Positions 6,158 to 33,026 of a stretch of DNA of 64,000 nt are shown here, one piece after another; position 1 is the stretch's first letter; each line of letters begins with the position of its first letter. The position numbers and the translations under genes are program-made. Under the pieces are notes generated by a model. That model ran no database searches. It had not been told where the DNA came from and saw only the letters and a list, made by a program, of their open reading frames with translations. The DNA comes from Candidatus Bathyarchaeia archaeon (lineage in GTDB: Archaea; Thermoproteota; Bathyarchaeia; Bathyarchaeales; Bathycorpusculaceae): positions 1-64,000 of the forward strand of contig JBEKWR010000001.1 in the NCBI GenBank assembly GCA_049512935.1, given 5' to 3'.

Positions 6158-6319
6158 CTTGTCACTGCATCAACGCTTCTTATTTTGCCGCGCTCACAGC
6201 TTTGAGAAGCTAAACTTGAAGACTTCAAGAGGCTTGTGAACACCGACGACAACCGGGCGCCTTAAAAGAACATTTTTATCTAAACGGTACAATAGCTACC
6301 CTTCAAGGTGCAAAGTTAA

Positions 6320-19794: not shown

Positions 19795-20103
19795 TTATTT
19801 TTCCTCTAAAGCTGCTTCAAAGTCCGCGCGGAAATCTTCGTATGTGTATTGAAGAGATATCTTTCGTTCCTTGACTATTTCCATCATTTCCCAGAGCGTT
19901 AAGCCGGAGATTTTTGCGGCTTTCTGCAGAGTTACTTTTCCGTCACAATAGAGATTCAGCGCTCTTTCAAGTTTCCAATCGGCAATTGCCCTCGCTAAGA
20001 GCTTTCTGACGACAATTGCGCGGCAGGTTTTTTCTTCCTTTTCGATTTCGCCCAAATCTTTTGCCATTTTGCTTGTAATCCGCGTTGTAATGATATCTGT
20101 CAT
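19795..20103 (-). CDS. UPF0175 family putative antitoxin
   Basis: RHH-like N-terminus, then W.LERAL.LY..GKVTL.KAAKISGLTLWE; paralog of the 25658 ORF. Confidence 0.85.
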   Translation of the reverse strand: MTDIITTRITSKMAKDLGEIEKEEKTCRAIVVRKLLARAIADWKLERALNLYCDGKVTLQKAAKISGLTLWEMMEIVKERKISLQYTYEDFRADFEAALEEK

Positions 20104-20168
20104 TTAGAATTTTACCTACAAATTTGGTATACAAAAGATAGAAACGACTACGCTTAAAAACGTCCTCT

Positions 20169-20795
20169 TTAACCAGAAGAATTCGCGCCACTTTTCTGCG
20201 TTTCTTGTTCGTCTTTTAGTGCTTCGCCAAAAATCTTTTTCAAGTTTCTTTTCATTTCGGTTATGTCATTGGGCAGACCGAAGTAATCGGCGAAGTCAGC
20301 CGTGGTCCTCAACATCATCGAGCGCCCGCTTTTTTCAGCCATAATCAAATGGCTCTCCTTCAGCTCCTTAATATGACCGTAGGCGTGTTGTCCCCTGACG
20401 TCGATGACTCGTTTTTGGCTGATAGGCTGCCTAAGTGCAATGTAAGAAAGCGTTTTGAGGGGACCTTGAGAAAGCAACGGTCGGTTCACCAGCTTCTGGA
20501 TTAAATGAGTGAATTCTGCCTTGACCTGCAGAACGTAGCGTTCGTCTTTTAAAGCTAAAATTTCAAGCGCCGTGCTTCTCGCATTATATTCCTGCATTAG
20601 GGCGTCTGCGTATTTCTGGGCTTTCTTTTTGCTGCGGCTACCTATGACTTGGCATAGCTCGTTCAAGTCCAGCGGTCGCCCGGCAACAAAGAGGGCGGCT
20701 TCTATGAGCACAATGCAGTGAGCTCTCCGCTCGTCATCCTGCGCCTGCTCAGCGTCAGGGTTCGGTTCAGCTGGTTGTTCCTTGGGCTTTTCCAA
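20169..20795 (-). CDS. scpB: SMC-Scp complex subunit ScpB
   Basis: IEAALF.AG.PL, L.TLSYIA..QPI, RG, TT..F.DYFGL. Confidence 0.92.
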   Translation of the reverse strand: MEKPKEQPAEPNPDAEQAQDDERRAHCIVLIEAALFVAGRPLDLNELCQVIGSRSKKKAQKYADALMQEYNARSTALEILALKDERYVLQVKAEFTHLIQKLVNRPLLSQGPLKTLSYIALRQPISQKRVIDVRGQHAYGHIKELKESHLIMAEKSGRSMMLRTTADFADYFGLPNDITEMKRNLKKIFGEALKDEQETQKSGANSSG

Positions 20796-21480
20796 CGTTC
20801 AGTTTCCCCACTGCGATGTATAATTCTTCAGTTTCCTCGTTCTGCCATAAACTCACTCGGGCATCCTGAGCTAAAAACAACAGGTAAATAAACGTTCTTA
20901 ACGCTTCGATTCGGGTGGCGTTTTTGGTGAGAGTTGAAAAATCAATTATTCCTGACCCCTTCACTTTCTCGCAAATCATGGCGTACAAACTTTCAGTTTG
21001 CAGTTCGATTTCGGCCATGAACTTGTCAAACTGCGGCATCAGGTCCGTCATAGACGGCAAAATCGGGTGCTCAACCACGCGGTCAAGATGCAGCAGCCTT
21101 TCACCCTTCAACACGTCGTCTAAGACTTCGAGGAGATGCTGAATGGTTGTGGAAGTTAACTCGTGCCTAAGCGGCAGAAACAGCGGCGGCGGAACATAAT
21201 CCAGCGGGCCCGTAGGCGGAGGCGCAGGCGGCTCTTGCAGGGTAAGCAGCAGCTTGGTTTTCATCAGGTAAATCAGGGCTGAAGAGTCCAATGCGACGCC
21301 TGAGGCTCGAAAATCCATCTTGTCGGTCCTCTCCATCTCGGCGAGAAATGACCGCAGAAGATAGGAGATGTTGATGTTCCATGGAGTCAGCTTCTCAAGC
21401 TTGCTGATTTCAAAAAGGATGTTCCATGGCGGGCGCAGGTAGAACGGCTTTCTAAGAGGCGCTGTGGATGCCGACGCCAT
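20767..21480 (-). CDS. scpA: Kleisin ScpA
   Basis: PWNINI, L..MKTKLLL and F..LLFLA motifs; between smc and scpB. Confidence 0.85.
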   Translation of the reverse strand: MASASTAPLRKPFYLRPPWNILFEISKLEKLTPWNINISYLLRSFLAEMERTDKMDFRASGVALDSSALIYLMKTKLLLTLQEPPAPPPTGPLDYVPPPLFLPLRHELTSTTIQHLLEVLDDVLKGERLLHLDRVVEHPILPSMTDLMPQFDKFMAEIELQTESLYAMICEKVKGSGIIDFSTLTKNATRIEALRTFIYLLFLAQDARVSLWQNEETEELYIAVGKLNVGKAQGTTS

Positions 21481-24400
21481 TTATCTTGGCGCCTCCGCTG
21501 GGAACTTGGCTGTCACAACGTTGGAGACGCCGTTTAGTTCGTAGACGCCGTAGACTTTCTGCGCCTTGTTAACCATTTCAGGTCTGAGCGTGATTACTAT
21601 GAACTGCATTTTTGCGGCTTCTTCAAGAAGCAACTCGGCAAGCCTTGTCGTGTGGTAAGCGTCCAAGTGCGCGTCCACCTCGTCAAGAATGTAGAACGAT
21701 GCAGGCGTGAACTCTCTGAGCGAGAAAATGAAGGCAACAGCCGACACGGAACGCTCCCCGCCACTTGCCCCGCTGACCACAATGGAGGGCTTGTTGGGGA
21801 ACTGCACAATCATGTCTATGCCGCCGCTGAAGGGTTCTTCCGGGTTTTCAAGCTTAAGCGTGGCTTCTCCGCCTCCGGTGAGTTTAAGGAAGTAGCCTTT
21901 GAGGCTGCTGTTGATTTTGTCGAAGGCGTCCATGAAGACCCTGCGTTTCTTAGCTTCGACTTCATCCATAAACTGAACGATGGCTTGCTTTTCCCGTTCC
22001 AACTCGTTCAATCGGACCGATAATTCTCGGTAACGTGAAAGCTGGTCTGCATAGTGGGAGAGTGCAAGCTGGTTTACGGCGCCTATCCGCTCCATTTCAA
22101 ACTGCATCATTCGGATGGTTGTTTCCGCCTCTTCAACCTGCTTCTGAGTGGTTTCCTGAATCTGCTCGAACCCGAACTGGCGAAGTTGATCCTGCAGCTG
22201 CTGCAGGCGCAGCTGGTTTGTTTCCACGCCCAGTTGCAGCTGGTTTAGAAGTCTGTCTGCCTGCTCGTACTCTGAGTCGAGCACACGCAGTTCGGAGTCG
22301 ATGGCGTCGATTTGCCCGGTGAACTTTTTGGATTCTTCACGAGCCGAAAACACGGCTTTAGACAGTTCAACACGGGTTTTCTCCTCCTCGTCAAGCTGCT
22401 TCTTGACGGTTTCACGTTCCTGCAGCGCGTCTGCCACTTCTTTCTCCAGTTTTCTCTGTTGCTGCTCAACTTTAACTATCTGAATTTTGATGTTCTTGTA
22501 CCCGTTGCGGAGCACCCTGTCGAACTGTGACTGGTAAGTTGAAATCTCCGTCTGGGTTGACCCCGAGTTTTGCCGCAGATTGTTAACTTCTTCCCCGAGC
22601 TTTTCCCGTTCAGCCTCAAGCGCCGATATGTGGGTCACGTCTGTTTTTAACCTTAAACTGGCTATTTCGGCACGCAGCTTTTCATCTTGTCTCCGAATGC
22701 TGTTGCGTTCGTTTCGGTACGTTTCCATGCGGCCCTTGTAAGCCGCCGCTTCACGCCCAAGTTTGCCACCGTACTTATCCGTGTGCCGAATGTTAAATTG
22801 GGTTCTCTTGACGCCGCGTTTGACCCGCACTATTTCCCTGTCCAGGGTTGCGATGCCTTCCACAAGCCGCGTCATATCGATTTTGGCTCGTTCAATCTCC
22901 TCCTCAAGACCTGAGATGTCGGTTCCTCTCTGAGTCAGGTGAGTCTGCAACGCGTTAACGGCTTCATCCAGGCTTTTCAGGGCGTTTTCGCTCGGGATGA
23001 TGGTTGAGAAGTCTATCGGCGCACGGTAATACCCGCTTTCGAAAGCGCCAGGCTCGTACAAGTCACCGTTAACCGTCACGGCGCGGTAGCCTTCGTTTGA
23101 AATAGCAAAAGCCGCTCTGTCGTTTGAAGCCACTACGGTGTCTCCGAAAACGTAGTTCACAGCCAACTCGTAGCTGCTCTCGTACTTCATGAAGCTGGTT
23201 AGGGCGCCGATGACGCCTTCGCGGCTAGGCGTTCCCTTGTTTTTCGGGTTGATAGCGCCCTGCAACGGGATAATCTTGATTCTGCCCAGTTTCATCCGCC
23301 TGAGCGTTTCGGTGCAGGTGAAGGCTGAATCCAGGTCTGCCACAACCAACGCGTCAAGCCAACCAGTCGCCGCAGCCTCAATGGCTTTCTTGTAGTTCTT
23401 GTCAATCTTAATCAGGTTCCGAAGCCTGCCAAGAATCCCGTTTATCGCGCCTACGTTGCCCATTTCCTCAATGCTTCTCAACGCTTTTTCTTCAGCAGCG
23501 ATAGTGGCGGCAAGATCCCTCTGCGTGGCAAACTCTATCACGGCATCTTTGGCGGAACTGGCTATTTTTTCAGCTTCACCGATTTCTTTTTCAACGGTTT
23601 CCTTCTGCGTTGTTTTGCGTTCGATCGTACTTTCAAGGTTTTTAAGCTGGCTTTTCTGGTCTTTCTGGACTTGCTCCAGCTCAGAGAGTGACTTTTCAAT
23701 TTCGGCTAAGCTTGTCTGGAATCTTTCTTTTCGCACGTTCAAGTTTTTTATTCTTCCCGTGCAGAGACGAAGCGCCGCTTTGTCTTGAGTGTACATCGAA
23801 CGCAGGTACGCCAAACGCTTAACGTGGCTATCGATTTCAGTCTGCTTTGCACGTATCTGCCCGTTGTTACCGTCAAGTCCACCCCAAAGCTCGGCTGTCT
23901 GCTTCGCCAGCGCTTCATGCTCAGAAGCCTTTTGAGCCATCTGTTCTTGAATTTTCCCGAGTTCACTTCGAAACGCCCTGATTTTCAAACGGTTTTCCCG
24001 TATTTCGCTTCGAATGGTTTCCTGCTGGGCAAGGTTGTTTTCTCTTATGCGCTTTAGGCTTTCCAGGGTTCCCTGACCAGAATTGATTTTCGTGGTTAAC
24101 TCGGTTAACTTGGATTTTAACTCGCCGATCGTTATTTGAACCTTAAGAACCTGTGAGCCGCCTTCTTCAAGGTTTTCGCCGCTGAGCTTACGCCATTCAC
24201 CCTCGATGTCATGACGTTTATTCCTGCGCAGGTCACGCTGCTCTTTGAGCTTGTCAACCCTAGCTTTTACTTTTTCAGTTTGGCTTCCCGCCTCGTTTAA
24301 TTTGGCGTTCACCTGGGTTATGTCACTTGATATCTTGATGGCTTGAAACTTTTTTGTTTCCTCTTGAATAAAGTCGTGACGCTGAAGCTGGTTGCGTTCC

Positions 24401-25032
24401 CGCTCCAAATCATCAAGGCGTTTCTGAACCTCGTCGATTCTTCCCATGGCAGTGCGGATTGAAATGTCTCCTGCGCGGAGTTTTTCCTCGGCTTCAGCCT
24501 TCTCCGAGTCGTACTGGCCTATCCCGACGAGGTCTTCGATTATTTTTCGTCGTTCCAAAGAGTTAATCTCTGTCAGCCTCGTCAGGGTGCCCTGCGGGAT
24601 GATATTTTGGCTCATGCTGCTGATCGAGCTCATAGAGAGGGTTTCCGTGATGTAAGCTCTGGACATTCTCCTGCCGTTTAAGCGGTAAACGCTTTGACCA
24701 TTCTTGAAAACCTCACGGGAAATCGTCACCGTAGTTGTGTCCACGGGCATTGTGCCGTCTGAATTGTCAAATTGAATAACAACCTTCGCCATCTTGGCTT
24801 TTTCCTGCCCCGCCTTCTCTGAACCGTGAAAAATCAGGTGAGCAGCGCTTTCAGCTCGAAGCCTCCGTGTGCTAAGCTCGCCAAGAGAGAACAGCACGGC
24901 GTCGATTATGTTGGATTTTCCGCTTCCGTTCGGGCCCGTTAAGGCAGTGAAGCCTTTGTCTAAAGATATTTTGACGGTCTGCGGCCCGAAAGACTTGAAG
25001 CCTTTCAACTCGATTTTTTTTATGTAGGGCAT
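21481..25032 (-). CDS. smc: Chromosome segregation protein SMC
   Basis: GFKSF, GPNGSGKSN, coiled coils, hinge, SGGERS, ILDEVDAHLD. Confidence 0.98.
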   Translation of the reverse strand: MPYIKKIELKGFKSFGPQTVKISLDKGFTALTGPNGSGKSNIIDAVLFSLGELSTRRLRAESAAHLIFHGSEKAGQEKAKMAKVVIQFDNSDGTMPVDTTTVTISREVFKNGQSVYRLNGRRMSRAYITETLSMSSISSMSQNIIPQGTLTRLTEINSLERRKIIEDLVGIGQYDSEKAEAEEKLRAGDISIRTAMGRIDEVQKRLDDLERERNQLQRHDFIQEETKKFQAIKISSDITQVNAKLNEAGSQTEKVKARVDKLKEQRDLRRNKRHDIEGEWRKLSGENLEEGGSQVLKVQITIGELKSKLTELTTKINSGQGTLESLKRIRENNLAQQETIRSEIRENRLKIRAFRSELGKIQEQMAQKASEHEALAKQTAELWGGLDGNNGQIRAKQTEIDSHVKRLAYLRSMYTQDKAALRLCTGRIKNLNVRKERFQTSLAEIEKSLSELEQVQKDQKSQLKNLESTIERKTTQKETVEKEIGEAEKIASSAKDAVIEFATQRDLAATIAAEEKALRSIEEMGNVGAINGILGRLRNLIKIDKNYKKAIEAAATGWLDALVVADLDSAFTCTETLRRMKLGRIKIIPLQGAINPKNKGTPSREGVIGALTSFMKYESSYELAVNYVFGDTVVASNDRAAFAISNEGYRAVTVNGDLYEPGAFESGYYRAPIDFSTIIPSENALKSLDEAVNALQTHLTQRGTDISGLEEEIERAKIDMTRLVEGIATLDREIVRVKRGVKRTQFNIRHTDKYGGKLGREAAAYKGRMETYRNERNSIRRQDEKLRAEIASLRLKTDVTHISALEAEREKLGEEVNNLRQNSGSTQTEISTYQSQFDRVLRNGYKNIKIQIVKVEQQQRKLEKEVADALQERETVKKQLDEEEKTRVELSKAVFSAREESKKFTGQIDAIDSELRVLDSEYEQADRLLNQLQLGVETNQLRLQQLQDQLRQFGFEQIQETTQKQVEEAETTIRMMQFEMERIGAVNQLALSHYADQLSRYRELSVRLNELEREKQAIVQFMDEVEAKKRRVFMDAFDKINSSLKGYFLKLTGGGEATLKLENPEEPFSGGIDMIVQFPNKPSIVVSGASGGERSVSAVAFIFSLREFTPASFYILDEVDAHLDAYHTTRLAELLLEEAAKMQFIVITLRPEMVNKAQKVYGVYELNGVSNVVTAKFPAEAPR

Positions 25033-25657
25033 TTAGCCTTGTCCTCACGGCAGCGGTCTATGTTATTTTAACATCTCATCCACATACGTATAAAAGCTTA
25101 TAGATATGCTACAGCGTTTATAGGAATACTTTTGAGATGTTGAGTTGTCCTAAGCGTTTGAAAATCTCTTAGGTTTTTTGTAGAAATGCATTGTGACCAC
25201 GTTGTATGTCTATCGGAGCTCCTGATTTAAGTTTAAAGAAACAAGTGGTAACGATCTTCACCGCCGCGTGAATCAAGAAACTGTTCTCATTCACTGCACG
25301 GGCCGTTCTAAGCCACAGCGCCAACAGGGTTCAGCACCAAATTTTCACCAAACCCACTGGACATAATTTACAGCAACATTTCAGGAAACTTGTATGCTTT
25401 AACGGTAAATACCAGTCCTAGCCTAAGTTCTGGCAATTACAACGTAAATGCTGAAGCCACCTTGACCATACCCATTCAAATGCTCGTTCCAAATAGCAAT
25501 TGGCGCGGTGTGATAGTTTGTCAAGTTACCAGCTGGGTGAATAGTAACATAGGGGTTCCCTTCGAGAGTTCGTTCATTATCAAAGAAGAGAGGATTTGTG
25601 CGTTTCGCCAAAAAGCACTTATGTATGCATTTGCTATCAATTGTATACGTGATATTG

Positions 25658-25987
25658 ATGACGCTTAAACCGTTAGCTGTAAGAATACCTTCAGAAGTCG
25701 AACAAGAAATCAGCGAAATCGTCGAGGAAGAAAAAGTGGATAAAGCAACAGTAGTGAGAAACCTTCTCGAAATAGGTCTCGCTGAATGGCGCAAGCAAAC
25801 CGCGCTGGATCTTTTGCAGGAGGGGAAAGCCACTTTTGCTAAGGCGGCGGAGATTGCTAAGCTTTCGCTTTGGGAATTTGCTGACCTTGTTAAGCAACGC
25901 AATATAGAGTGGGTTAGATTTACCCCTGATGAAGTAGAAAAAGAGTTCAGGGAAGCGTCGGCGGCGAAATGCGAGAGAAGCCGTTAG
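25658..25987 (+). CDS. UPF0175 family antitoxin
   Basis: LAVRIP RHH-like start, GKATFAKAAEIAKLSLWEF; overlaps the PIN gene. Confidence 0.88.
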   Translation: MTLKPLAVRIPSEVEQEISEIVEEEKVDKATVVRNLLEIGLAEWRKQTALDLLQEGKATFAKAAEIAKLSLWEFADLVKQRNIEWVRFTPDEVEKEFREASAAKCERSR

Positions 25988-26487
25988 TTTTTGATTCTAC
26001 GCCGTTAATTTACTTAACGAAGGCTGGGCTAAGTAGAATCTTCAAGGAATTAGATGGAGAAAAGTTAACCTCACTTCTGGTTAAAAGTGAAGTTGTTGAT
26101 GCAGGTAAGAACAAAGGTCTTCCTGATGCGCTTGTTTTAGATAAGTCGTTCATGAACGGTGTCTTCAAAGTGTGCGAACCCACAGATAAGAAGCTCTTGA
26201 ACAGGTTGTTGAGTACTCACGGGCTTCATGTTGCTGACGCAGAAGTTTTAACCCTTGCCCATGAACATGCGGGCATCGCGGTGATAGATGACGAAGTTGC
26301 CAGGAAGACAGCGAAAGTTTACGAGATTGAATACGCCGGTTCAGCTTATGTTTTAATGAGGGCGGTTTGTGAAGGGCTCATTTCGAAAGCGAAGGCTAAA
26401 CAAGCAGTTAATGACATGGTTTCTTCAGGTTGGCGGTGTAGTGTTGAGAGTTACATGAAGATCATAGAAGCTTTAGAAAAACTATGA
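25969..26487 (+). CDS. PIN-domain toxin, DUF3368 family
   Basis: VFDSTPLIYL, EVV, L..ADAEVL.LA, IDDEVAR..A. Confidence 0.88.
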   Translation: MREKPLVFDSTPLIYLTKAGLSRIFKELDGEKLTSLLVKSEVVDAGKNKGLPDALVLDKSFMNGVFKVCEPTDKKLLNRLLSTHGLHVADAEVLTLAHEHAGIAVIDDEVARKTAKVYEIEYAGSAYVLMRAVCEGLISKAKAKQAVNDMVSSGWRCSVESYMKIIEALEKL

Positions 26488-26494
26488 CCCGCTT

Positions 26495-26540
26495 TAGGGC
26501 TGTGAATCCTTTGTCTAAGGATATCTTGATGGTCTGCGGC
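26495..26540 (-). repeat. Diverged 46-bp copy of smc 5' coding sequence (24940-24985)
   Basis: 40/46 identical; encodes PQTIKISLDKGFTAL versus smc PQTVKISLDKGFTAL. Confidence 0.9.
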
Positions 26541-26877
26541 GTTCAATCTGCCTTTCTTCTTCTACTACGAGATAGGCTTTGCGTTCTTGAAGACTGAAAT
26601 GAGCGGCACGTTGTTTCACAGGTGTACCAGCACGATTGGATTCCGCTTTATTCGATTGCTGCCCTAAACGTAGTGGAGGCAGTAACCGTGATTCGAACCA
26701 AAAGATGCACAACAAATTCTAACCCCAAGTGAAAATGGAGGAGTTGGAACAAACAGAAAAATGAGGAATCTTCTTGTTTTGATGGCAGCGCATTCTTTTC
26801 GAAAGTGAAAACGGGTTCTCTTTTTCCTACAAAAAATTCCTTGAACTCTTGAAAAAACACAGATTACTTGAATTTAA

Positions 26878-26896
26878 ACAAAAAAAAGAAAAGGGG
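26878..26896 (-). terminator. Oligo-U terminator of the surface-protein gene
   Basis: Minus strand CCCCTTTTCTTTTTTTT about 20 nt after the stop. Confidence 0.55.
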
Positions 26897-26913
26897 TTTT
26901 GTTTGTTTTGTTC

Positions 26914-29598
26914 TTATGGTCTCTTTCTGAGGATAAGCAATCCGACTATGGCTATCGCGATGATTATGGCGATTACTGCGACGACCATGTAACCCATCAG
27001 GTCTGACGAGGTGACGTAGTTCGTTATGGGTGCTGCTGTTGGTGCGGGTGTTGCTGCTGCTGGTGAAGAGTAGAAGTGTGTTTCAGCGGTCGAGCCAAAG
27101 TAGCCGTTGTTGCCTGCGAAGTTGGCGTAGACTGTGAAGTTGCCGGGGATGTCTGGAGCCCATGTTAGACTGTATGAGCCGCTGCTGTCTGTTGTTGCTG
27201 TGCCTATCACTCTGGTGTTGCCGTTAGAGTCATGAACAGATATCACAACTGGTACGCCTGTGAAGTTGGTTGGCATTGGCTGCTGCTGGTAAACGTAGCT
27301 CATCCACTGGCTCATGCTAGCGTCAGAAGCGCATGGAACACCGTTCGGAAAGTCGCCTGCCTGCTGAGTTTGTTTCGTGCCTGCTGAGACGTCCATGACT
27401 GCGCCGCTTATCACTACATTGCTGCCAAAGGCTTCAACGTTAGCTGTGGTGCTGCTTGGTCCTCTGCCAACAAGGTAGATCTGGTTGTCGTAGCCGTTGA
27501 AGAATGTGTTGTACCCGTCTGCCACTGCATATGATGTGGCGCAGGCTGTGGCATCTGAAAGCGTCCAGATTTCTTGTCCAGTTGTAGCGTTAATGGCGCG
27601 TGTTTCTGCACCCTTATAGATTGGTGTTTCAAAAGTGTGCTCACCAGTAACCGTGTATACTACTCCGTTGGCTATAGCAGATATGTAAGTCGGGTAATTT
27701 GTTGCCCAGTTAAGGCCCGCGCTAGTGCTGTTGCCTTCGCCGCCGTTGCCGAATACCCAAAGCAGGTTTCCAGTAGTCAAATCATAACAGTAGACTATTC
27801 CGCTCATACCGCCGATGTATAGATTGCCGTAAGCCAATGTTGGACCTTGTCCGCTCCATCCTGTTGCGAAGAAGTTTAAGGCTGTCTGAGGTGTTGTTGG
27901 ACCCCATATTTCTTTGCCTGTGCTCATGCTGTATCCTACGTACTGCATAGTTTCAGTGCGGTATTCAACGAAGACGCCGGCGCCGCCATTAGCTGTTTGG
28001 TCGGCTCCGTTGTATGAGATAGTCAAGTTGCCAGGTGGCGGGGTGACTGTGTTCGTCCATAGTTGAGTACCGATTGCAGTGCTAGTTGGGTTGAGGTTTA
28101 GGCCGACGTAGGTGTAGGGAGTCCATGTTGGTGATCCGAAAACGCTGTCGCCAGCAGATGGCATGGCACCAGCCTCGATGATTGCCATATTGTTGTAGAA
28201 AGCGCTCTCTATAGTGGCTGTTACGCCTACAGGTACTGTTGTGTCAAGTGAAGTCTCTGAAACGTTCCAGTCAAGTAAGCTTGGATTGCCTCCGGCAAGT
28301 ATCGGTGGAACTACAGAAGGAGTCGTTGAAGGGCCTGAGTATTCATTGTCCCAAAGTCTTGACGAGTTCCATTCTTGCAGATAGTATTGATTAGGTCCTA
28401 TTTGAGTGTATATCGGACCAAAAGGACCGTACCCCGTTATTTGGGTTGGTGCGAGGTTTACTAGGCTAACTATCAGGTATTCACCTTCAGGACCCATGAG
28501 TGCTGTGCCCGCGGGAACACCAGTTACGTTGAACAGCGGCGTTCCTGTGTCTGCATCATAACACATCCATTCCAGAGGTACCGGAGGCCCTAAGAAGGAT
28601 CCGCCGACAGTTGCAACTAAGATTGGCGGCCAAACTCCGTGCTCGTTGGGGTCTTGCATGTCGTATACGTAGGCGAAAGATAGTGCAGGCATAGTATTGC
28701 TGCTCCAGATTTGCTGTCCTGTCTGCAGGTTGATGCAGACGGTGGGTCCACCTGTGGAGTCTGCGTATGATAATGGTTCGGTGTAGATGAGCATTCCGTC
28801 AATTATTATTGGGTTGGTGTATCTAGTGGCGTATGCGCTTCCTTCGGCATATGTGTCTCCCTGAATGAGGAAGTTGTTTCCTCCTACGACTCCTCCACTC
28901 TCCAGCGGCGTTGTCCACATAACGTGGCTAGTTACTGATCCAACATCATTTGGTTGGAAAGTAGCGCCAGCCATTCCGCTTGAGTAGCCTGGTGCACCTG
29001 TGCCCAGCCAGTTTGACGAGACCGTCCACCAATTAGAGTTCAAGCCATAGATTGGTCGTGTCCAGTAGCTGGTCGGAAGAGGCGTTGTTGGGTAATACTG
29101 TAGCTGCGCTGTTTGCACGGTTAGCGTTGTTGTTGCGGAGCAGGCTGCGTAAACGTTGCCTTGTGCATTGACAGGCCCGAAGGGACCCACAAAGGGTGCC
29201 CAAGTGTATGTTTGCCCTGGGAAATTGAAGGTTAGAGTGTACGTGCCGGTTGTTGAGGGCGTGAAGTGGTAGTCTTGGTTTGCCGTTGGATCCGAAACAG
29301 TAGCAAATGTCTGTGTTGTGTTTGAGCCATCAGGTGCCGTGATTGTGAGCTTGTAGTTTGCCCATCGGACACTGTTGCCGAACGCCGCTCCTGGCAATAC
29401 TATGCTTAGCCACATGTCAATGTTAACTGATTGACCGATGCCTACGGGGTTGGGTGCTACATTAATGTACGCGTATGGGTGGAATGTTGGTGCAGTCGTT
29501 GCTTTAGCATTTGGTATTAGCATCATTGAAGCTGTCATAGAAAATATAAAGAGTGTTGCGATTACAATTGCTAAACTTTTATTTCTTGCAATATTCAT
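26914..29598 (-). CDS. Large secreted PQQ-like beta-propeller surface protein with C-terminal TM anchor
   Basis: Signal peptide, PNPVGIGQ Ig-like start, repeated (A/C).N..TG..IW / YDLTTG.LLW blades, PT linker, TM ending RKRP; ATG at 29598 after GGAG. Confidence 0.88.
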   Translation of the reverse strand: MNIARNKSLAIVIATLFIFSMTASMMLIPNAKATTAPTFHPYAYINVAPNPVGIGQSVNIDMWLSIVLPGAAFGNSVRWANYKLTITAPDGSNTTQTFATVSDPTANQDYHFTPSTTGTYTLTFNFPGQTYTWAPFVGPFGPVNAQGNVYAACSATTTLTVQTAQLQYYPTTPLPTSYWTRPIYGLNSNWWTVSSNWLGTGAPGYSSGMAGATFQPNDVGSVTSHVMWTTPLESGGVVGGNNFLIQGDTYAEGSAYATRYTNPIIIDGMLIYTEPLSYADSTGGPTVCINLQTGQQIWSSNTMPALSFAYVYDMQDPNEHGVWPPILVATVGGSFLGPPVPLEWMCYDADTGTPLFNVTGVPAGTALMGPEGEYLIVSLVNLAPTQITGYGPFGPIYTQIGPNQYYLQEWNSSRLWDNEYSGPSTTPSVVPPILAGGNPSLLDWNVSETSLDTTVPVGVTATIESAFYNNMAIIEAGAMPSAGDSVFGSPTWTPYTYVGLNLNPTSTAIGTQLWTNTVTPPPGNLTISYNGADQTANGGAGVFVEYRTETMQYVGYSMSTGKEIWGPTTPQTALNFFATGWSGQGPTLAYGNLYIGGMSGIVYCYDLTTGNLLWVFGNGGEGNSTSAGLNWATNYPTYISAIANGVVYTVTGEHTFETPIYKGAETRAINATTGQEIWTLSDATACATSYAVADGYNTFFNGYDNQIYLVGRGPSSTTANVEAFGSNVVISGAVMDVSAGTKQTQQAGDFPNGVPCASDASMSQWMSYVYQQQPMPTNFTGVPVVISVHDSNGNTRVIGTATTDSSGSYSLTWAPDIPGNFTVYANFAGNNGYFGSTAETHFYSSPAAATPAPTAAPITNYVTSSDLMGYMVVAVIAIIIAIAIVGLLILRKRP

Positions 29599-30111
29599 GT
29601 TTAGTCTTTCTCCATAGTTTTTTTTGCTGAGAAGAGTAAAGTTACTACTCTTCCCAACAAGTTGCACCACTTTGTCTTTTTGCCTTTAAATAACTTGTGT
29701 AAAAATCGCTAAACAAACGTTAAAAAAGCGGTGGAAGAAAGGAATAAATAAGCAAAGTTAAATTAAGTTAGCCCTTGATTTTACAAAAATTAATTGTGGG
29801 ATTGATGAATTTTTATTAATAATGCGAAAATATAGCCGCATATTGGTTGTTTTTGATAATGCTTTTGGTCTTTTGGTGAAGCTGAACGCGCCTTGTCTCG
29901 TTTTGCCCTATGACTCAAAGTTAGTTACTGCCCGAACTGGGTTTCTAGCACGTTTAGCATTAGCCAAAATGGTTCAGCCCCTGATTTTTTACCGTCAGCT
30001 GTTGGATAGCATGCTTTCGCTGAAATACCTGAAAGTCCAAATCGGCTATAGGATTGACTACAGCCGACCTGAACTGGCTCTTCATCTTGTCGAAAACAGA
30101 CAGTAATGCGG

Positions 30112-30258
30112 CTACTCTTTCTTTTCTCCGCCCCGTCCCCGCCACATTTCCTGCATATGCATAGGCATCTTTTCTATCGCGTCTTTCGCCAGATCCATCA
30201 ATTCTTCGTTTACCTCAACCTCAACTGTAAGCTTGAGTTTACCCTTCTTTTCTTGCAT
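30112..30258 (-). CDS. Small 48-aa protein absent from the ORF track
   Basis: ATG 1 nt after the upstream stop, with a GGAGGTG SD-like sequence ahead; MQEKKGKLKLTVEVEVNEELMDLAKDAIEKMPMHMQEMWRGRGGEKKE. Confidence 0.7.
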   Translation of the reverse strand: MQEKKGKLKLTVEVEVNEELMDLAKDAIEKMPMHMQEMWRGRGGEKKE

Positions 30259-30259
30259 T

Positions 30260-30562
30260 TCAGTCATGGAACCACCTCCTGAACCTGCTTAACTGCCGTG
30301 GAAACAAGTTACCAAGAAGATGAACCGCCTGCATGCCAGTAAGATCCAAATCCACCTCGATACGGTAGTGGAACTTTGCCAGCCGTTTGGTCTTGGTTTT
30401 GTAATCTCCGATTGCCCCCGCCTCCTTGAACTTGTGCAGTTGCTGATTTACGAGAACCGTGATAGCCGTCGGCGCCAAGGGTTCGAAAACAAAAAGGAGT
30501 CTTAAAAGAACACGGATGACGCTCTCCAATAGGGATTCAGACACAGATTCTTTCTCAGTCAT
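30260..30562 (-). CDS. Hypothetical protein
   Basis: 100-aa ORF from ATG 30562, coupled to the small downstream ORF. Confidence 0.65.
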   Translation of the reverse strand: MTEKESVSESLLESVIRVLLRLLFVFEPLAPTAITVLVNQQLHKFKEAGAIGDYKTKTKRLAKFHYRIEVDLDLTGMQAVHLLGNLFPRQLSRFRRWFHD

Positions 30563-30695
30563 TTGTAGCCCTTCAAAATACGTAACGCAAATCCTTTTGC
30601 ATGCCTCATTAAGCAGAAGCAAGAACTCACTTAAGAATGCAACGCGATTTTTTTAAGGTTGTGTGACTGTCATAAGACGACAACAAGTGACTATT

Positions 30696-31205
30696 ATGGC
30701 GCTCGAAGAACTAGCCTATCAAATTTACGGGTGCAAAAAATGTAGGCTCTGGCAAGGTGCAAAACATGGCGTGCCAGGCGAAGGACCAGCGAGTGCTAAA
30801 GTCATGCTTATCGGGCAAAACCCGGGAGCACATGAAGATGAGGTTGGCAGACCTTTCGTTGGAAGGTCAGGCAGATTTCTAAACAAGGTTTTGGCTGAAA
30901 ACGGGTTGAAACGCGAAGAGCTCTTCATAACAAGCATTGTGAAGCATGTCTCGCCGAAAAACCGAAAACCTTACCCTGACGAAGTCGCGGCATGCTTACC
31001 CTACTTAACCGCTCAAATCAGCGTTATCAAACCAAAAATAATCGTTCTGCTCGGCCAATCAGCGAAGGAAACCCCACGGTTTGAGGGAATCGAGTACATT
31101 GAAGCCATTCATCCCTCGGCAGCCATGCGTTTTAAGAAGATGCGAAACAAGTTTGAAGGGCAAATTGCTGAACTAGCAAAGAGAATGGCAAGCCTTGACG
31201 CCTGA
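30696..31205 (+). CDS. udg: Uracil-DNA glycosylase, family 4
   Basis: C..C.L, VPGEG, GQNPG..ED..GRPFVGRSG, HPSA. Confidence 0.9.
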   Translation: MALEELAYQIYGCKKCRLWQGAKHGVPGEGPASAKVMLIGQNPGAHEDEVGRPFVGRSGRFLNKVLAENGLKREELFITSIVKHVSPKNRKPYPDEVAACLPYLTAQISVIKPKIIVLLGQSAKETPRFEGIEYIEAIHPSAAMRFKKMRNKFEGQIAELAKRMASLDA

Positions 31206-31369: not shown

Positions 31370-32298
31370 TTGGCACGATCGAGACTGAGAACCTTACGAG
31401 GAAGTTCGGCGACCTCATTGCCGTCGACAACTTGACCCTCCGCGTGAACAAGGGCGAAGTCTTCGGCTTCCTCGGACCCAACGGCGCAGGAAAAACCACC
31501 ACGGTGCGGATGCTCTGCTGCCTGATATCCAAGACAAGCGGCAAAGCCAAAATTGGCGATTACGAGATTGGCAGCCAAGAAAACGCCTTAAAAATCAGGA
31601 AGATGATCGGGCTTGTCCCCGACAACGTGGGTCTCTACGAGTCTCTCACCGCCTATGAGAACCTGGACTATTACGGGACGCTGTACAGGCGTACTGACGC
31701 CCAGCGGAAGGAGAGCAACGAGTACTTTCTCAAGTTGCTTGGTCTATGGGAGAAGAGGGACGCTTTGGCTGGGACGTTTTCGAAGGGAATGAAGCAAAAG
31801 CTTGCCATAGCACGGGCACTCGTGCATGATCCCGAAATTCTTTTCATGGATGAGCCGACGGCGAACCTTGACCCGGAGTCGGCGAAGACAGTTCGGGAAT
31901 TTATTCTTGAGCTGAAGAGCCAGAAGAAAACGATTTTTCTGAACACGCACAACCTCGATGAGGCACAGAGAATCTGCGATAGAATCGCGATACTGAATAC
32001 CAAGCTGATGGCGGTGGGCACCGCCCAAGAGCTCGAAAAATCTGTCCACGGAAGAAAAACCGTTATTCATCTAAGACAAGTGGATGAAGCGATTTTGGAT
32101 TCACTCAAGAAGCTACGGGTTAAAAACTTGGTCAGAGAGGGTAACAAGTTAACGGTTGATGTCGTGAATCCTGAAGAGGAGAACCCTGACATCGTAAGCG
32201 CTATAGACACAGCGGGAGGGCGCATCGAAACCGTTACGGTGATTGGCAGTTCACTCGAAGACGCATACCTAAAACTAGTGAGGGAAAATAAACAATGA
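31370..32298 (+). CDS. ABC-2 exporter ATP-binding subunit (start anomalous)
   Basis: GPNGAGKTT, FSKGMKQK, MDEPT. Homologous frame extends to about 31372 (GTIETENLTRKFG) but the TTG at 31370 is one base out of frame. Confidence 0.9.
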
Positions 32299-33026
32299 CC
32301 AATTGGATGCCTTGGAAGATAGCGCGCAAAGAGTTGAAGGTGATCCGCAGAAAAAAAAGCATAATGTTCTACACCATCGCGCTCCCCTTCCTCCTCGCGG
32401 CTCTTTTTTCACTCGTCATAAGAAACGACGTAGCCTCCGGAATCCCCAGTAATCTTCAACTTGGCGCAGAATCCATCCTTTACTTCTTCGTTGTTTTGGC
32501 GGCTGTTCTTCCCAGCACCATTGCAGGCTACAGTATAGTGGGCGAAAAGATTGAGAAGACATTGGAGCCGCTGCTCGCGACCCCAACGACAGACGGCGAA
32601 ATTCTCCTTGGAAAAAGCCTCGCAGCGTTCCTGCCGCCAATGCTTTCGATGTGGGCTGGAGCATCAACCTTCATGGCGGTAGCCGACTACATACTGCGCA
32701 ACGCAGGGTTAAGCTACTATTATTTTCCCAATTGGAACGCAGCTGTTATGCTACTAATCCTCGCGCCTCTCGCAGCCATTTTCAGCGTCGAAGCAGGCGT
32801 GCTTGCTTCCTCAAGGGTGACCGACGTGCGGGGTGCAAACCAGATCGCGGGGCTCATGTTTGTTCCGTTCATGGCTGTCTTCGTTGCAGGAGTGGAAGGA
32901 ATAATTACGTTGAGCATCACAACCCTTCTTATATTCGCGGGCGGTGTAGCGATTTTTGATGTGGGTCTTTATTTCGTGAGCAAAGGAACTTTCAGACGAG
33001 AAGAGATACTTACGAAGTGGAAATGA
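32295..33026 (+). CDS. ABC-2 exporter permease
   Basis: IARKEL, SIVGEK..KTLEPLLATP, ILLGK; about 6 TM segments. Confidence 0.9.
   Translation: MTNWMPWKIARKELKVIRRKKSIMFYTIALPFLLAALFSLVIRNDVASGIPSNLQLGAESILYFFVVLAAVLPSTIAGYSIVGEKIEKTLEPLLATPTTDGEILLGKSLAAFLPPMLSMWAGASTFMAVADYILRNAGLSYYYFPNWNAAVMLLILAPLAAIFSVEAGVLASSRVTDVRGANQIAGLMFVPFMAVFVAGVEGIITLSITTLLIFAGGVAIFDVGLYFVSKGTFRREEILTKWK

Follow-up and report, generated by a model that had tools for sequence, protein, structure and literature searches.

Why should a short piece of the chromosomal gene smc stand as a direct repeat just behind the stop codon of a toxin gene, on the upstream side of smc itself? The question is raised by a 64,000-nt stretch of DNA (hereafter the window; positions 1 to 64,000 of contig JBEKWR010000001.1, assembly GCA_049512935.1) from a Candidatus Bathyarchaeia archaeon of the family Bathycorpusculaceae. 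Upstream of smc, this window carries an islet with a toxin-antitoxin (TA) cassette, and the repeated piece of smc lies at the end of that cassette. We refer to the piece as smc' or copy B, and to its counterpart within the resident gene as copy A. The initial annotation took the repeat for an attachment-like scar left by an element that integrates just before the Walker A motif of smc and supplies a replacement 5' end. Our comparison with 119 other genomes of the genus points to another history. We consider it fairly probable that the islet is the decayed left part of an island inserted by a tyrosine recombinase at a 16-bp core in the smc promoter, and that the smc piece is a leftover of an imported smc 5' region rather than an attachment site (att).

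Islands upstream of smc in related genomes

Comparison of smc loci indicates that, in this genus, islands with a tyrosine recombinase integrate at the 16-bp core GTATAAAAGCTTATAG upstream of smc. In the window, this core contains a TTTATA box (at 25094 on the minus strand), which presumably represents the archaeal TATA element. Two genomes, G099 and G072, present the empty site: the smc promoter and the core run straight into CACCTAC.. and then into a 480-aa gene. G099 lacks the integrase, and its smc and the G071 gene share 97 % identity; here the order is smc promoter, GTATAAAAGCTTATAG, CACCTACAC.., and the 480-aa gene. This same right flank is found after the distal core in G073 and G071. 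The two cores of G073 lie on one contig: the integrase comes after the first (932-947), and CACCTAC.. with the 480-aa gene after the second (6291-6306). They delimit an island of 5.36 kb that encodes the integrase, a 108-aa open reading frame (ORF) and a 956-aa surface protein. The island of G071 is split over two contigs, with one core at the integrase end (contig C1) and the other beside the G099-type right flank (contig C29), and its cargo includes a type I restriction-modification (R-M) system. Two cores upstream of smc were also found in G108 (9.46 kb), G087 (8.4 kb), and G111 (6.46 kb). Direct repeats of the core therefore bound the islands of G073, G108, G087, and G111 and, across two contigs, that of G071. 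Both the comparison of empty with occupied smc loci and the search for larger integrase-bearing elements at this site, which the initial annotation had proposed, gave positive results, the latter in G071 and G073.

The cargo of these islands varies among the relatives and comprises type I R-M systems, surface proteins, glycosyltransferase-like genes, and TA genes. All five islands share the right-arm motif GCGGGAGAYG(0-10 nt)TCGCCA, located 10-15 nt before the distal core, which is probably an arm-type binding site. For 14 of 29 genomes, homology with the integrase-bearing reference breaks off 69-72 nt before the smc ATG; for contigs of other organisms in the sequencing runs X4 and X5, agreement with the window ends at 25103. 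We also observed an imperfect 29-nt inverted repeat (72 % complementary) at 25070-25141, which is centred on the att core and joins smc-side promoter sequence with the left arm of the island.

Full-length integrase genes are located directly upstream of smc, on the same strand and adjoining the att core, in G071 (430-442 aa) and G073 (388-391 aa). Seventeen of the 120 genomes of the genus have a match to the 3' end of the integrase gene directly beside smc; all except the two full-length genes are remnants, and the family as a whole is present in 96 of the 120. The protein passes no Pfam or NCBIfam cut-off and yields a weak XerA match (E 2.6e-4), and a profile built from nine members matches HP1 integrase (E 2.9e-5) across the R-H..Y box. 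We searched with an AlphaFold model of the integrase (mean predicted local distance difference test score 65, core 70-90) using Foldseek, and XerA was retrieved first (E 2.5e-8), followed by IntI, Tn1549 Int, XerH, Cre, and lambda Int; the top matches were tyrosine recombinases only. The N-terminus presents a zinc ribbon of the IS1/IS1595 type, and the protein extends ~55 aa beyond the catalytic tyrosine. The integrase is thus a tyrosine recombinase with an N-terminal zinc ribbon. A Pfam search with the 114-aa integrase remnant of G111 gave nothing useful, and phmmer with the full integrase against the PDB returned zinc-ribbon noise only. The same core, with one mismatch, was also found beside integrase copies or remnants away from smc (G092:C6, G075:C25, and G130:C21). 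The family may have secondary sites, or whole att-integrase junctions may have been moved.

The two genomes with a full-length integrase, G071 and G073, are also the two whose assemblies show lesions in smc. In the G071 gene, 58 nt are missing (G071:C1 ~1895-1900, equivalent to 24924-24981 in the window), a loss that takes out codons ~18-37 with most of the Walker A motif and shifts the frame; the lost segment nearly coincides with the fragment that is duplicated in the window. No second smc copy was found in G071, where the only other match is a distant paralogue with 26 % identity. In G073 (G073:C60 ~900-935), a 30-nt deletion takes the end of the 5' untranslated region and the first three codons including the ATG, and the open frame begins with TVIKKIELKG.

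The window retains a truncated island

The core is present as a single copy in the window and in the whole genome, at 25088-25103. Next come the left arm that is also present in G073 and the last 16 integrase codons, whose minus-strand frame (25150-25197) reads ..VVTMHFYKKPKRFSNA*; at the DNA level, arm and codons together show 82 % identity to the full-length integrase genes of G071 and G073 (3' end plus spacer downstream). The right-arm motif has no match in the window. With one core and no right-arm motif, this genome has no attL/attR pair, and the remaining core appears to act as an attL without a partner. Because of the single core and the missing right-arm motif, the window most plausibly holds a truncated and immobile island remnant and not a complete element. 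A search of the window and of the first 6 kb of the G073 contig for a further, distal promoter/att region gave no shared 9-mers and no meaningful local alignment; the second core of G073 sits beyond those first 6 kb, at 6291. A homologue of the G099 right-flank gene is located on another contig of the window's genome.

The genome G098 is collinear with the window from 26880 to about 38400, and its smc promoter and surface-protein gene are only ~100 bp apart. We considered G098 as a clean empty site and rejected it: a small part of the left arm is still present there and no complete core is, which suggests a further-reduced derivative rather than a virgin site. The window's genome (G000) and G108 lose integrase homology within ~3 nt of the same point (~25190, after ..AGAAATG), and the sequences beyond this point are unrelated between the two. 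This shared point may reflect either an old truncation that was reused later or a second breakage hot spot.

The islet beyond the integrase remnant (Table 1) is a mosaic in which three gene fragments surround one intact TA cassette. Relatives of X', of the TA cassette, and of memX' occur in other genomes, in each case at other places. The full-length homologue of X' has no Pfam match. The antitoxin gene precedes the toxin gene and the two overlap by 19 nt (25969-25987), an arrangement that, together with the families involved (we take DUF3368 to be PIN-like), indicates an intact type II cassette. This cassette is 84 % identical to a copy in G123 and 80 % identical to one in G115, both at unrelated places, and its homology ends at 25603-25607 on the left and at 26483-26485 on the right. 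The toxin stop is TGA at the joint with smc', and TAG or TAA in four close homologues (G123, G115, G049, and G095). Full-length copies of memX are found at seven loci of relatives and on contig C21 of the window's own genome; beyond copy B, the memX part proper covers 26544-26733.

Table 1. Features of the smc locus, ordered by position in the window.
Feature	Position	Strand	Basis or remark
scpB	20169-20795		Downstream of smc/scpA; ORF list
scpA	20767-21480		Downstream of smc; ORF list
smc (1183 aa)	21481..25032	-	ORF list; 79-85 % DNA identity to smc of genus relatives
Copy A, resident smc codons 17-31 (PQTVKISLDKGFTAL)	24939..24985	-	Directly before Walker A GPNGSGKS
16-bp attachment core GTATAAAAGCTTATAG	25088..25103	+	56-71 nt upstream of smc ATG; overlaps TTTATA box
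Island left arm with last 16 codons and stop of tyrosine-recombinase gene (..VVTMHFYKKPKRFSNA*)	25104..25197	-	Stop at 25150-25152
X', 3'-terminal fragment of a gene for a ~330-aa secreted/membrane protein	25312..25500	+	81-82 % DNA identity to 3' ends in G099:C10 and G071:C49
Intact UPF0175/DUF3368 cassette with ~50-nt upstream region	25607..26487	+	Pfam; homologous cassettes elsewhere
UPF0175 antitoxin	25658-25987	+	PF03683, 43.9 bits (cut-off 27.9)
DUF3368 PIN-like toxin (family presumed PIN-like)	25969-26487	+	PF11848, 34.8 bits (cut-off 27.3)
smc' (copy B), smc codons 17-34 of non-resident allele type, 2-nt insertion, non-coding	26486..26540	-	
memX', frame-broken 3' fragment of a multicopy gene for a ~315-345-aa membrane protein	26535..26733	+	72-78 % identity to 3' ends of full-length genes
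Spacer of unassigned origin between memX' and the flank shared with G098	26734..26879		G098 homology resumes at 26880
Gene for a 918-aa surface protein (PQQ-like propeller, C-terminal membrane anchor)	26914..29670	-	G073 homologue lies inside the att-bounded island

The smc fragment and its junctions

A search for direct repeats over 23500-28000 recovered copies A and B as a 47-nt repeat with 87 % identity (41/47; 24939-24985 and 26494-26540), the runner-up being 33 nt at 73 %. The repeat reported just behind the toxin stop is therefore real. The sole match to copy B in the 2.30-Mb, 49-contig assembly is the smc site itself (E 1.2e-9). Translation of the two copies (PQTVKISLDKGFTAL for copy A and PQTIKISLDKGFTAL for copy B) confirmed that the six differences, which read G/A, A/G, T/C, C/A, T/A, and T/C on the coding strand, amount to five synonymous changes and one Val to Ile replacement; the longest exact runs common to both copies are ~10-11 nt. 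The toxin stop TGA occupies 26485-26487 and position 26495 sits 8 nt beyond it. Homology to the smc alleles of sister species extends further, to 26486, and thus abuts the toxin stop; near codon 34 copy B presents the sister-type GGT vs GGC in the resident gene, and a 2-nt insertion after Leu31 breaks the smc frame within this extended homology. Directly upstream of copy B, in the sense of smc, a stop codon is found, and smc codons 1-16 are missing.

We considered several other origins for the repeat. A template/variable pair of the diversity-generating retroelement type is excluded by the kinds of differences between the copies, which are not confined to template adenines, and no reverse transcriptase-like ORF is present among the ORFs listed for 20000-31000. 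Restriction sites (GGNCC) were considered from the sequence as an origin of the fragment's ends and dropped as unsupported. ARAGORN detected no tRNA in 20000-31000, and Rfam returned no family at the site, with a single match below threshold (E 0.58).

It is extremely improbable that the fragment results from a chimeric assembly of two strains, a concern already raised in the initial annotation. The assembly does derive from a metagenome, in 49 contigs, and the fragment does resemble the allele of another strain. However, the TA/copy B/memX' junctions are covered with 0 differences by Logan contigs from three further runs with separate sample and study codes (X3, spanning 25985-27151; X4, 25011-26772; X6, 26323-26592), and no alternative joints were seen in these contigs for the window's organism. 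Moreover, a 145.7-kb metagenome contig is identical to the window across 8,038 nt, and the exact runs shared by the two copies are too short for a k-mer mis-join.

The affinities of copy B lie with sister species. Over 47 nt, it matches the allele of G108 at 44 positions, those of G098 and G072 at 43, and resident copy A at 41; copy A in turn matches G098 and G004 at 42. Using blastn-short, copy B matched G108 at 43/45 and G072 at 37/38. Copy B presents no private substitution among 19 sequences, only the 2-nt insertion, and it is the resident copy that departs from the majority of the sister clade at three of the six sites where the copies differ. A first polarization with four distant outgroups had assigned derived states to copy B; this was reversed after closer sister alleles were added. 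The view that the fragment belongs to a different smc allele was thus upheld, with sister alleles matching slightly better (44/47 and 43/47) than the resident gene. The proposed replacement of the resident 5' end was not: identity to four sister species is 0.83-0.89 in codons 17-34 vs 0.82-0.90 in the gene body, the promoter and codons 1-16 are in line with the body as well, and no displaced smc start lies beyond copy B. We did not detect a clear second smc fragment in any of the 119 other genomes, where the longer matches to copy B all fall at each genome's own smc and the others (14-24 nt, E 0.01-0.1) are at chance level, nor within 10 kb upstream in eight close relatives. Taken together, these sequence affinities suggest that smc' is probably a piece of a non-resident, sister-species-like smc allele that was recently imported and later trimmed by deletion. 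A recent origin from a functional sister-like smc is suggested because a non-coding copy evolving in place would be expected to accumulate changes more rapidly than the constrained gene, and the data show the reverse.

The two edges of the fragment differ in kind. Full-length memX genes read ..CTTGCGGCTAC.. just before the point where homology starts, and copy B ends with ..TCTGCGGC. The two partners share a 6-nt microhomology, TGCGGC, which forms the first 6 nt of memX', and both are truncated there. The right edge of smc' is thus a microhomology-mediated deletion joint, and its length of 46 bp is accidental. At the other edge, where the toxin stop meets codon 34, the microhomology is at most 2 nt.

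A proposed history and its rivals

Our observations comprise the core with its empty and occupied sites, the remnant of the integrase, the mosaic structure of the islet, the microhomology at the joint, and the affinities of the alleles; from these we infer import from a relative and the following order of events. In a donor, aberrant excision or circularization of an island would have fused smc codon 34 to the DNA that immediately follows the toxin stop. The donor DNA would then have entered beside the resident smc through the ~260 bp of shared smc-5'/promoter/att homology, so that an additional smc 5' region of the donor type would come to lie beyond the cargo. Finally, the TGCGGC of smc codons 17-18 and that within a memX gene would have served as the ends of a deletion that removed the duplicate smc start, its promoter and att core, and the 5' part of memX.

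Several points weigh against this history. The allele signal is carried by 47-55 nt only, and 44 vs 41 matches is not significant alone. No donor allele identical to copy B was found: a 38-mer of copy B with one degenerate position recovered a single contig among the metagenome contigs searched, and that contig is identical to the window. No relative keeps the predicted intermediate (smc', codons 16-1, promoter, and second core), and the joint between toxin stop and codon 34 offers at most those 2 nt of microhomology. The integrase remnant may also long predate the TA/smc' part and have had nothing to do with its arrival, since G000 and G108 nearly share their truncation point. Finally, the 1.78-kb difference between the window and G098 may be a deletion in G098 and not an insertion here, because G098 keeps a piece of the left arm.

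Alternatively, the fragment could have arisen locally, through a tandem duplication of 24931-26485 followed by a trimming deletion and divergence in place, or with homologous recombination replacing the resident copy. We regard this as unlikely, even though it needs only two illegitimate events, and hence fewer steps for the same joints, relies on a deletion joint that is documented, and explains the direct orientation and the exact junction of toxin stop and codon 34. The non-coding copy should outpace a constrained gene, yet copy B has no private substitution and at least three of the six differences fall on the side of the resident copy; the probability of such a 3:0 split is near 0.01, a rough figure that assumes the constrained copy to evolve at ~0.3 of the neutral rate. 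The variant with recombination meets the further difficulty that the resident 5' end shows no sign of replacement.

Much less probable is an element that integrates within smc codons 17-34 and brings its own smc start and promoter, so that the repeat would be its attR. Such an element would have a precedent in bacterial dusA islands, which target the 5' end of their gene (PMC4482086). The repeat is indeed direct, with the cargo between it and the integrase remnant. In relatives, the integrase gene is directly upstream of smc on the same strand, and the 58-nt deletion of G071 removes nearly the same segment (24924-24981), as if this stretch were prone to breakage. Against it, the islands of five relatives are bounded by GTATAAAAGCTTATAG at -56 to -71 and not by smc coding sequence, none of the 119 other genomes presents a clear second smc fragment or cargo bounded by the 47-nt repeat, copy B gives way to a stop and memX' instead of smc codons 16-1, and no discordance separates the resident 5' end from the body of the gene. 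This model is thereby already largely refuted. Of the initial annotation, the element at the smc locus survives as an integrase-borne island family with variable cargo; the 46-bp repeat as its att site, and integration just before Walker A, do not.

Two further readings would give the fragment or the islands a role in smc expression. The fragment might be kept as functional if RNA reading through the toxin gene were antisense to codons 17-34 of the smc mRNA and so linked TA expression to the level of SMC. The predicted duplex between RNA of 26480-26550 and the smc mRNA reaches -79.6 kcal/mol vs -29.6 +/- 4.3 for 200 shuffles, and a scan for bacterial-type terminators returned no terminator-like site between toxin stop and fragment. 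Such a duplex is, however, expected from any antisense repeat with 87 % identity. The fragment does not track the resident allele, three of the six differences cannot form even wobble pairs, the fragment is unique to this genome among those compared, and its size is set by an accidental deletion joint. We therefore judge this role very improbable. A broader version, in which the island family and smc are functionally entangled and the element lowers or modulates host SMC, with smc' possibly adding an antisense input, also seems improbable to us. Island-borne activity would then repeatedly damage or copy the 5' end of smc, and the foreign fragment here, the 58-nt Walker A deletion of G071, and the 30-nt start-codon deletion of G073 would fit. 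SMC proteins as a class restrict foreign DNA in other organisms. Because the att core overlaps the BRE/TATA region (BRE, transcription factor B recognition element) of smc, every integration would rewrite the sequence upstream of the smc promoter.

Other features around the locus

The 3' end of the surface-protein gene and the A/T-rich stretch downstream of it (26876-26999) match dozens of loci of the genus at 72-83 %, which suggests a C-terminal anchor module common to many genes of these archaea. A second UPF0175 antitoxin-like ORF is located at 19795-20103 on the minus strand (Pfam E 2e-13), just downstream of scpB and next to the gene for ribosomal protein S8e; it has no DUF3368 partner. 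Since this ORF adjoins scpB, the smc-scpAB operon has UPF0175 genes on both sides. An ABC ATPase/permease pair at 31378-33026 is missing from the collinear position of G098. G003 and G019 carry the homologous pair in inverted orientation immediately upstream of smc, and in G016 it is located 3 kb upstream. Rearrangements of the smc upstream region are seen in almost every species.

Relation to known systems

Archaeal integrated elements are known at tRNA genes, at intergenic sites, and in 3'-distal parts of genes (PMC6563490, PMC8371274); among 68 thaumarchaeal elements, 39 occupy tRNA genes, 15 intergenic sites, and 14 the 3'-distal parts of genes (PMC6563490). The smc islands resemble the integrated mobile genetic elements at intergenic sites in that survey: the integrase stands at one end beside att, 16-bp direct repeats flank a variable cargo, empty sites exist in close relatives, the cargo includes defence genes (type I R-M and TA), and tandem or decayed copies occur. 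They differ in that their core overlaps the BRE/TATA region of smc and in that their integrase combines a zinc ribbon N-terminus with an extension of ~55 aa after the tyrosine and passes no Pfam or NCBIfam cut-off; the window, in addition, keeps a remnant only, without a second att. For the targeting of a 5' end, the nearest analogue is the dusA-associated integrase islands of Proteobacteria, which integrate inside the 5' coding end (PMC4482086). Both present a dedicated integrase family tied to the 5' side of one housekeeping gene and a highly variable cargo. Unlike in dusA islands, the crossover core of the smc islands lies upstream of the start codon, and the smc coding fragment is a by-product and not an att site. 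The UPF0175/DUF3368 cassette is itself ordinary, apart from its TGA stop at the smc' joint: it shares with other such cassettes the 19-nt overlap, the order with the antitoxin first, and a 0.88-kb unit whose place differs from genome to genome.

Aberrant excision of the kind that underlies specialized transduction allows a mobile element to take a bit of a neighbouring host gene into the next host, and homology-facilitated illegitimate recombination anchors one end of incoming DNA by homology and joins the other at a few bases of microhomology. The history proposed here would combine steps of both kinds, and unlike in specialized transduction the path is deduced from the scar alone. In a literature search that was not exhaustive, we found no description of smc as an integration target. 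The islands apparently represent an undescribed integrase family of a known kind of element, and the smc' fragment is an ordinary recombination scar.

By itself, smc' is thus of little significance: it would record the import of DNA from a related species, followed by microhomology-mediated trimming. The island family is of wider interest. Its hosts are uncultured archaea of peat and wetlands, and it combines conserved arms and defence cargo with a precisely defined 16-bp core at the smc promoter that is seen both empty and occupied. It therefore constitutes a ready system for studying site-specific integration in these archaea, and possibly a genetic tool.

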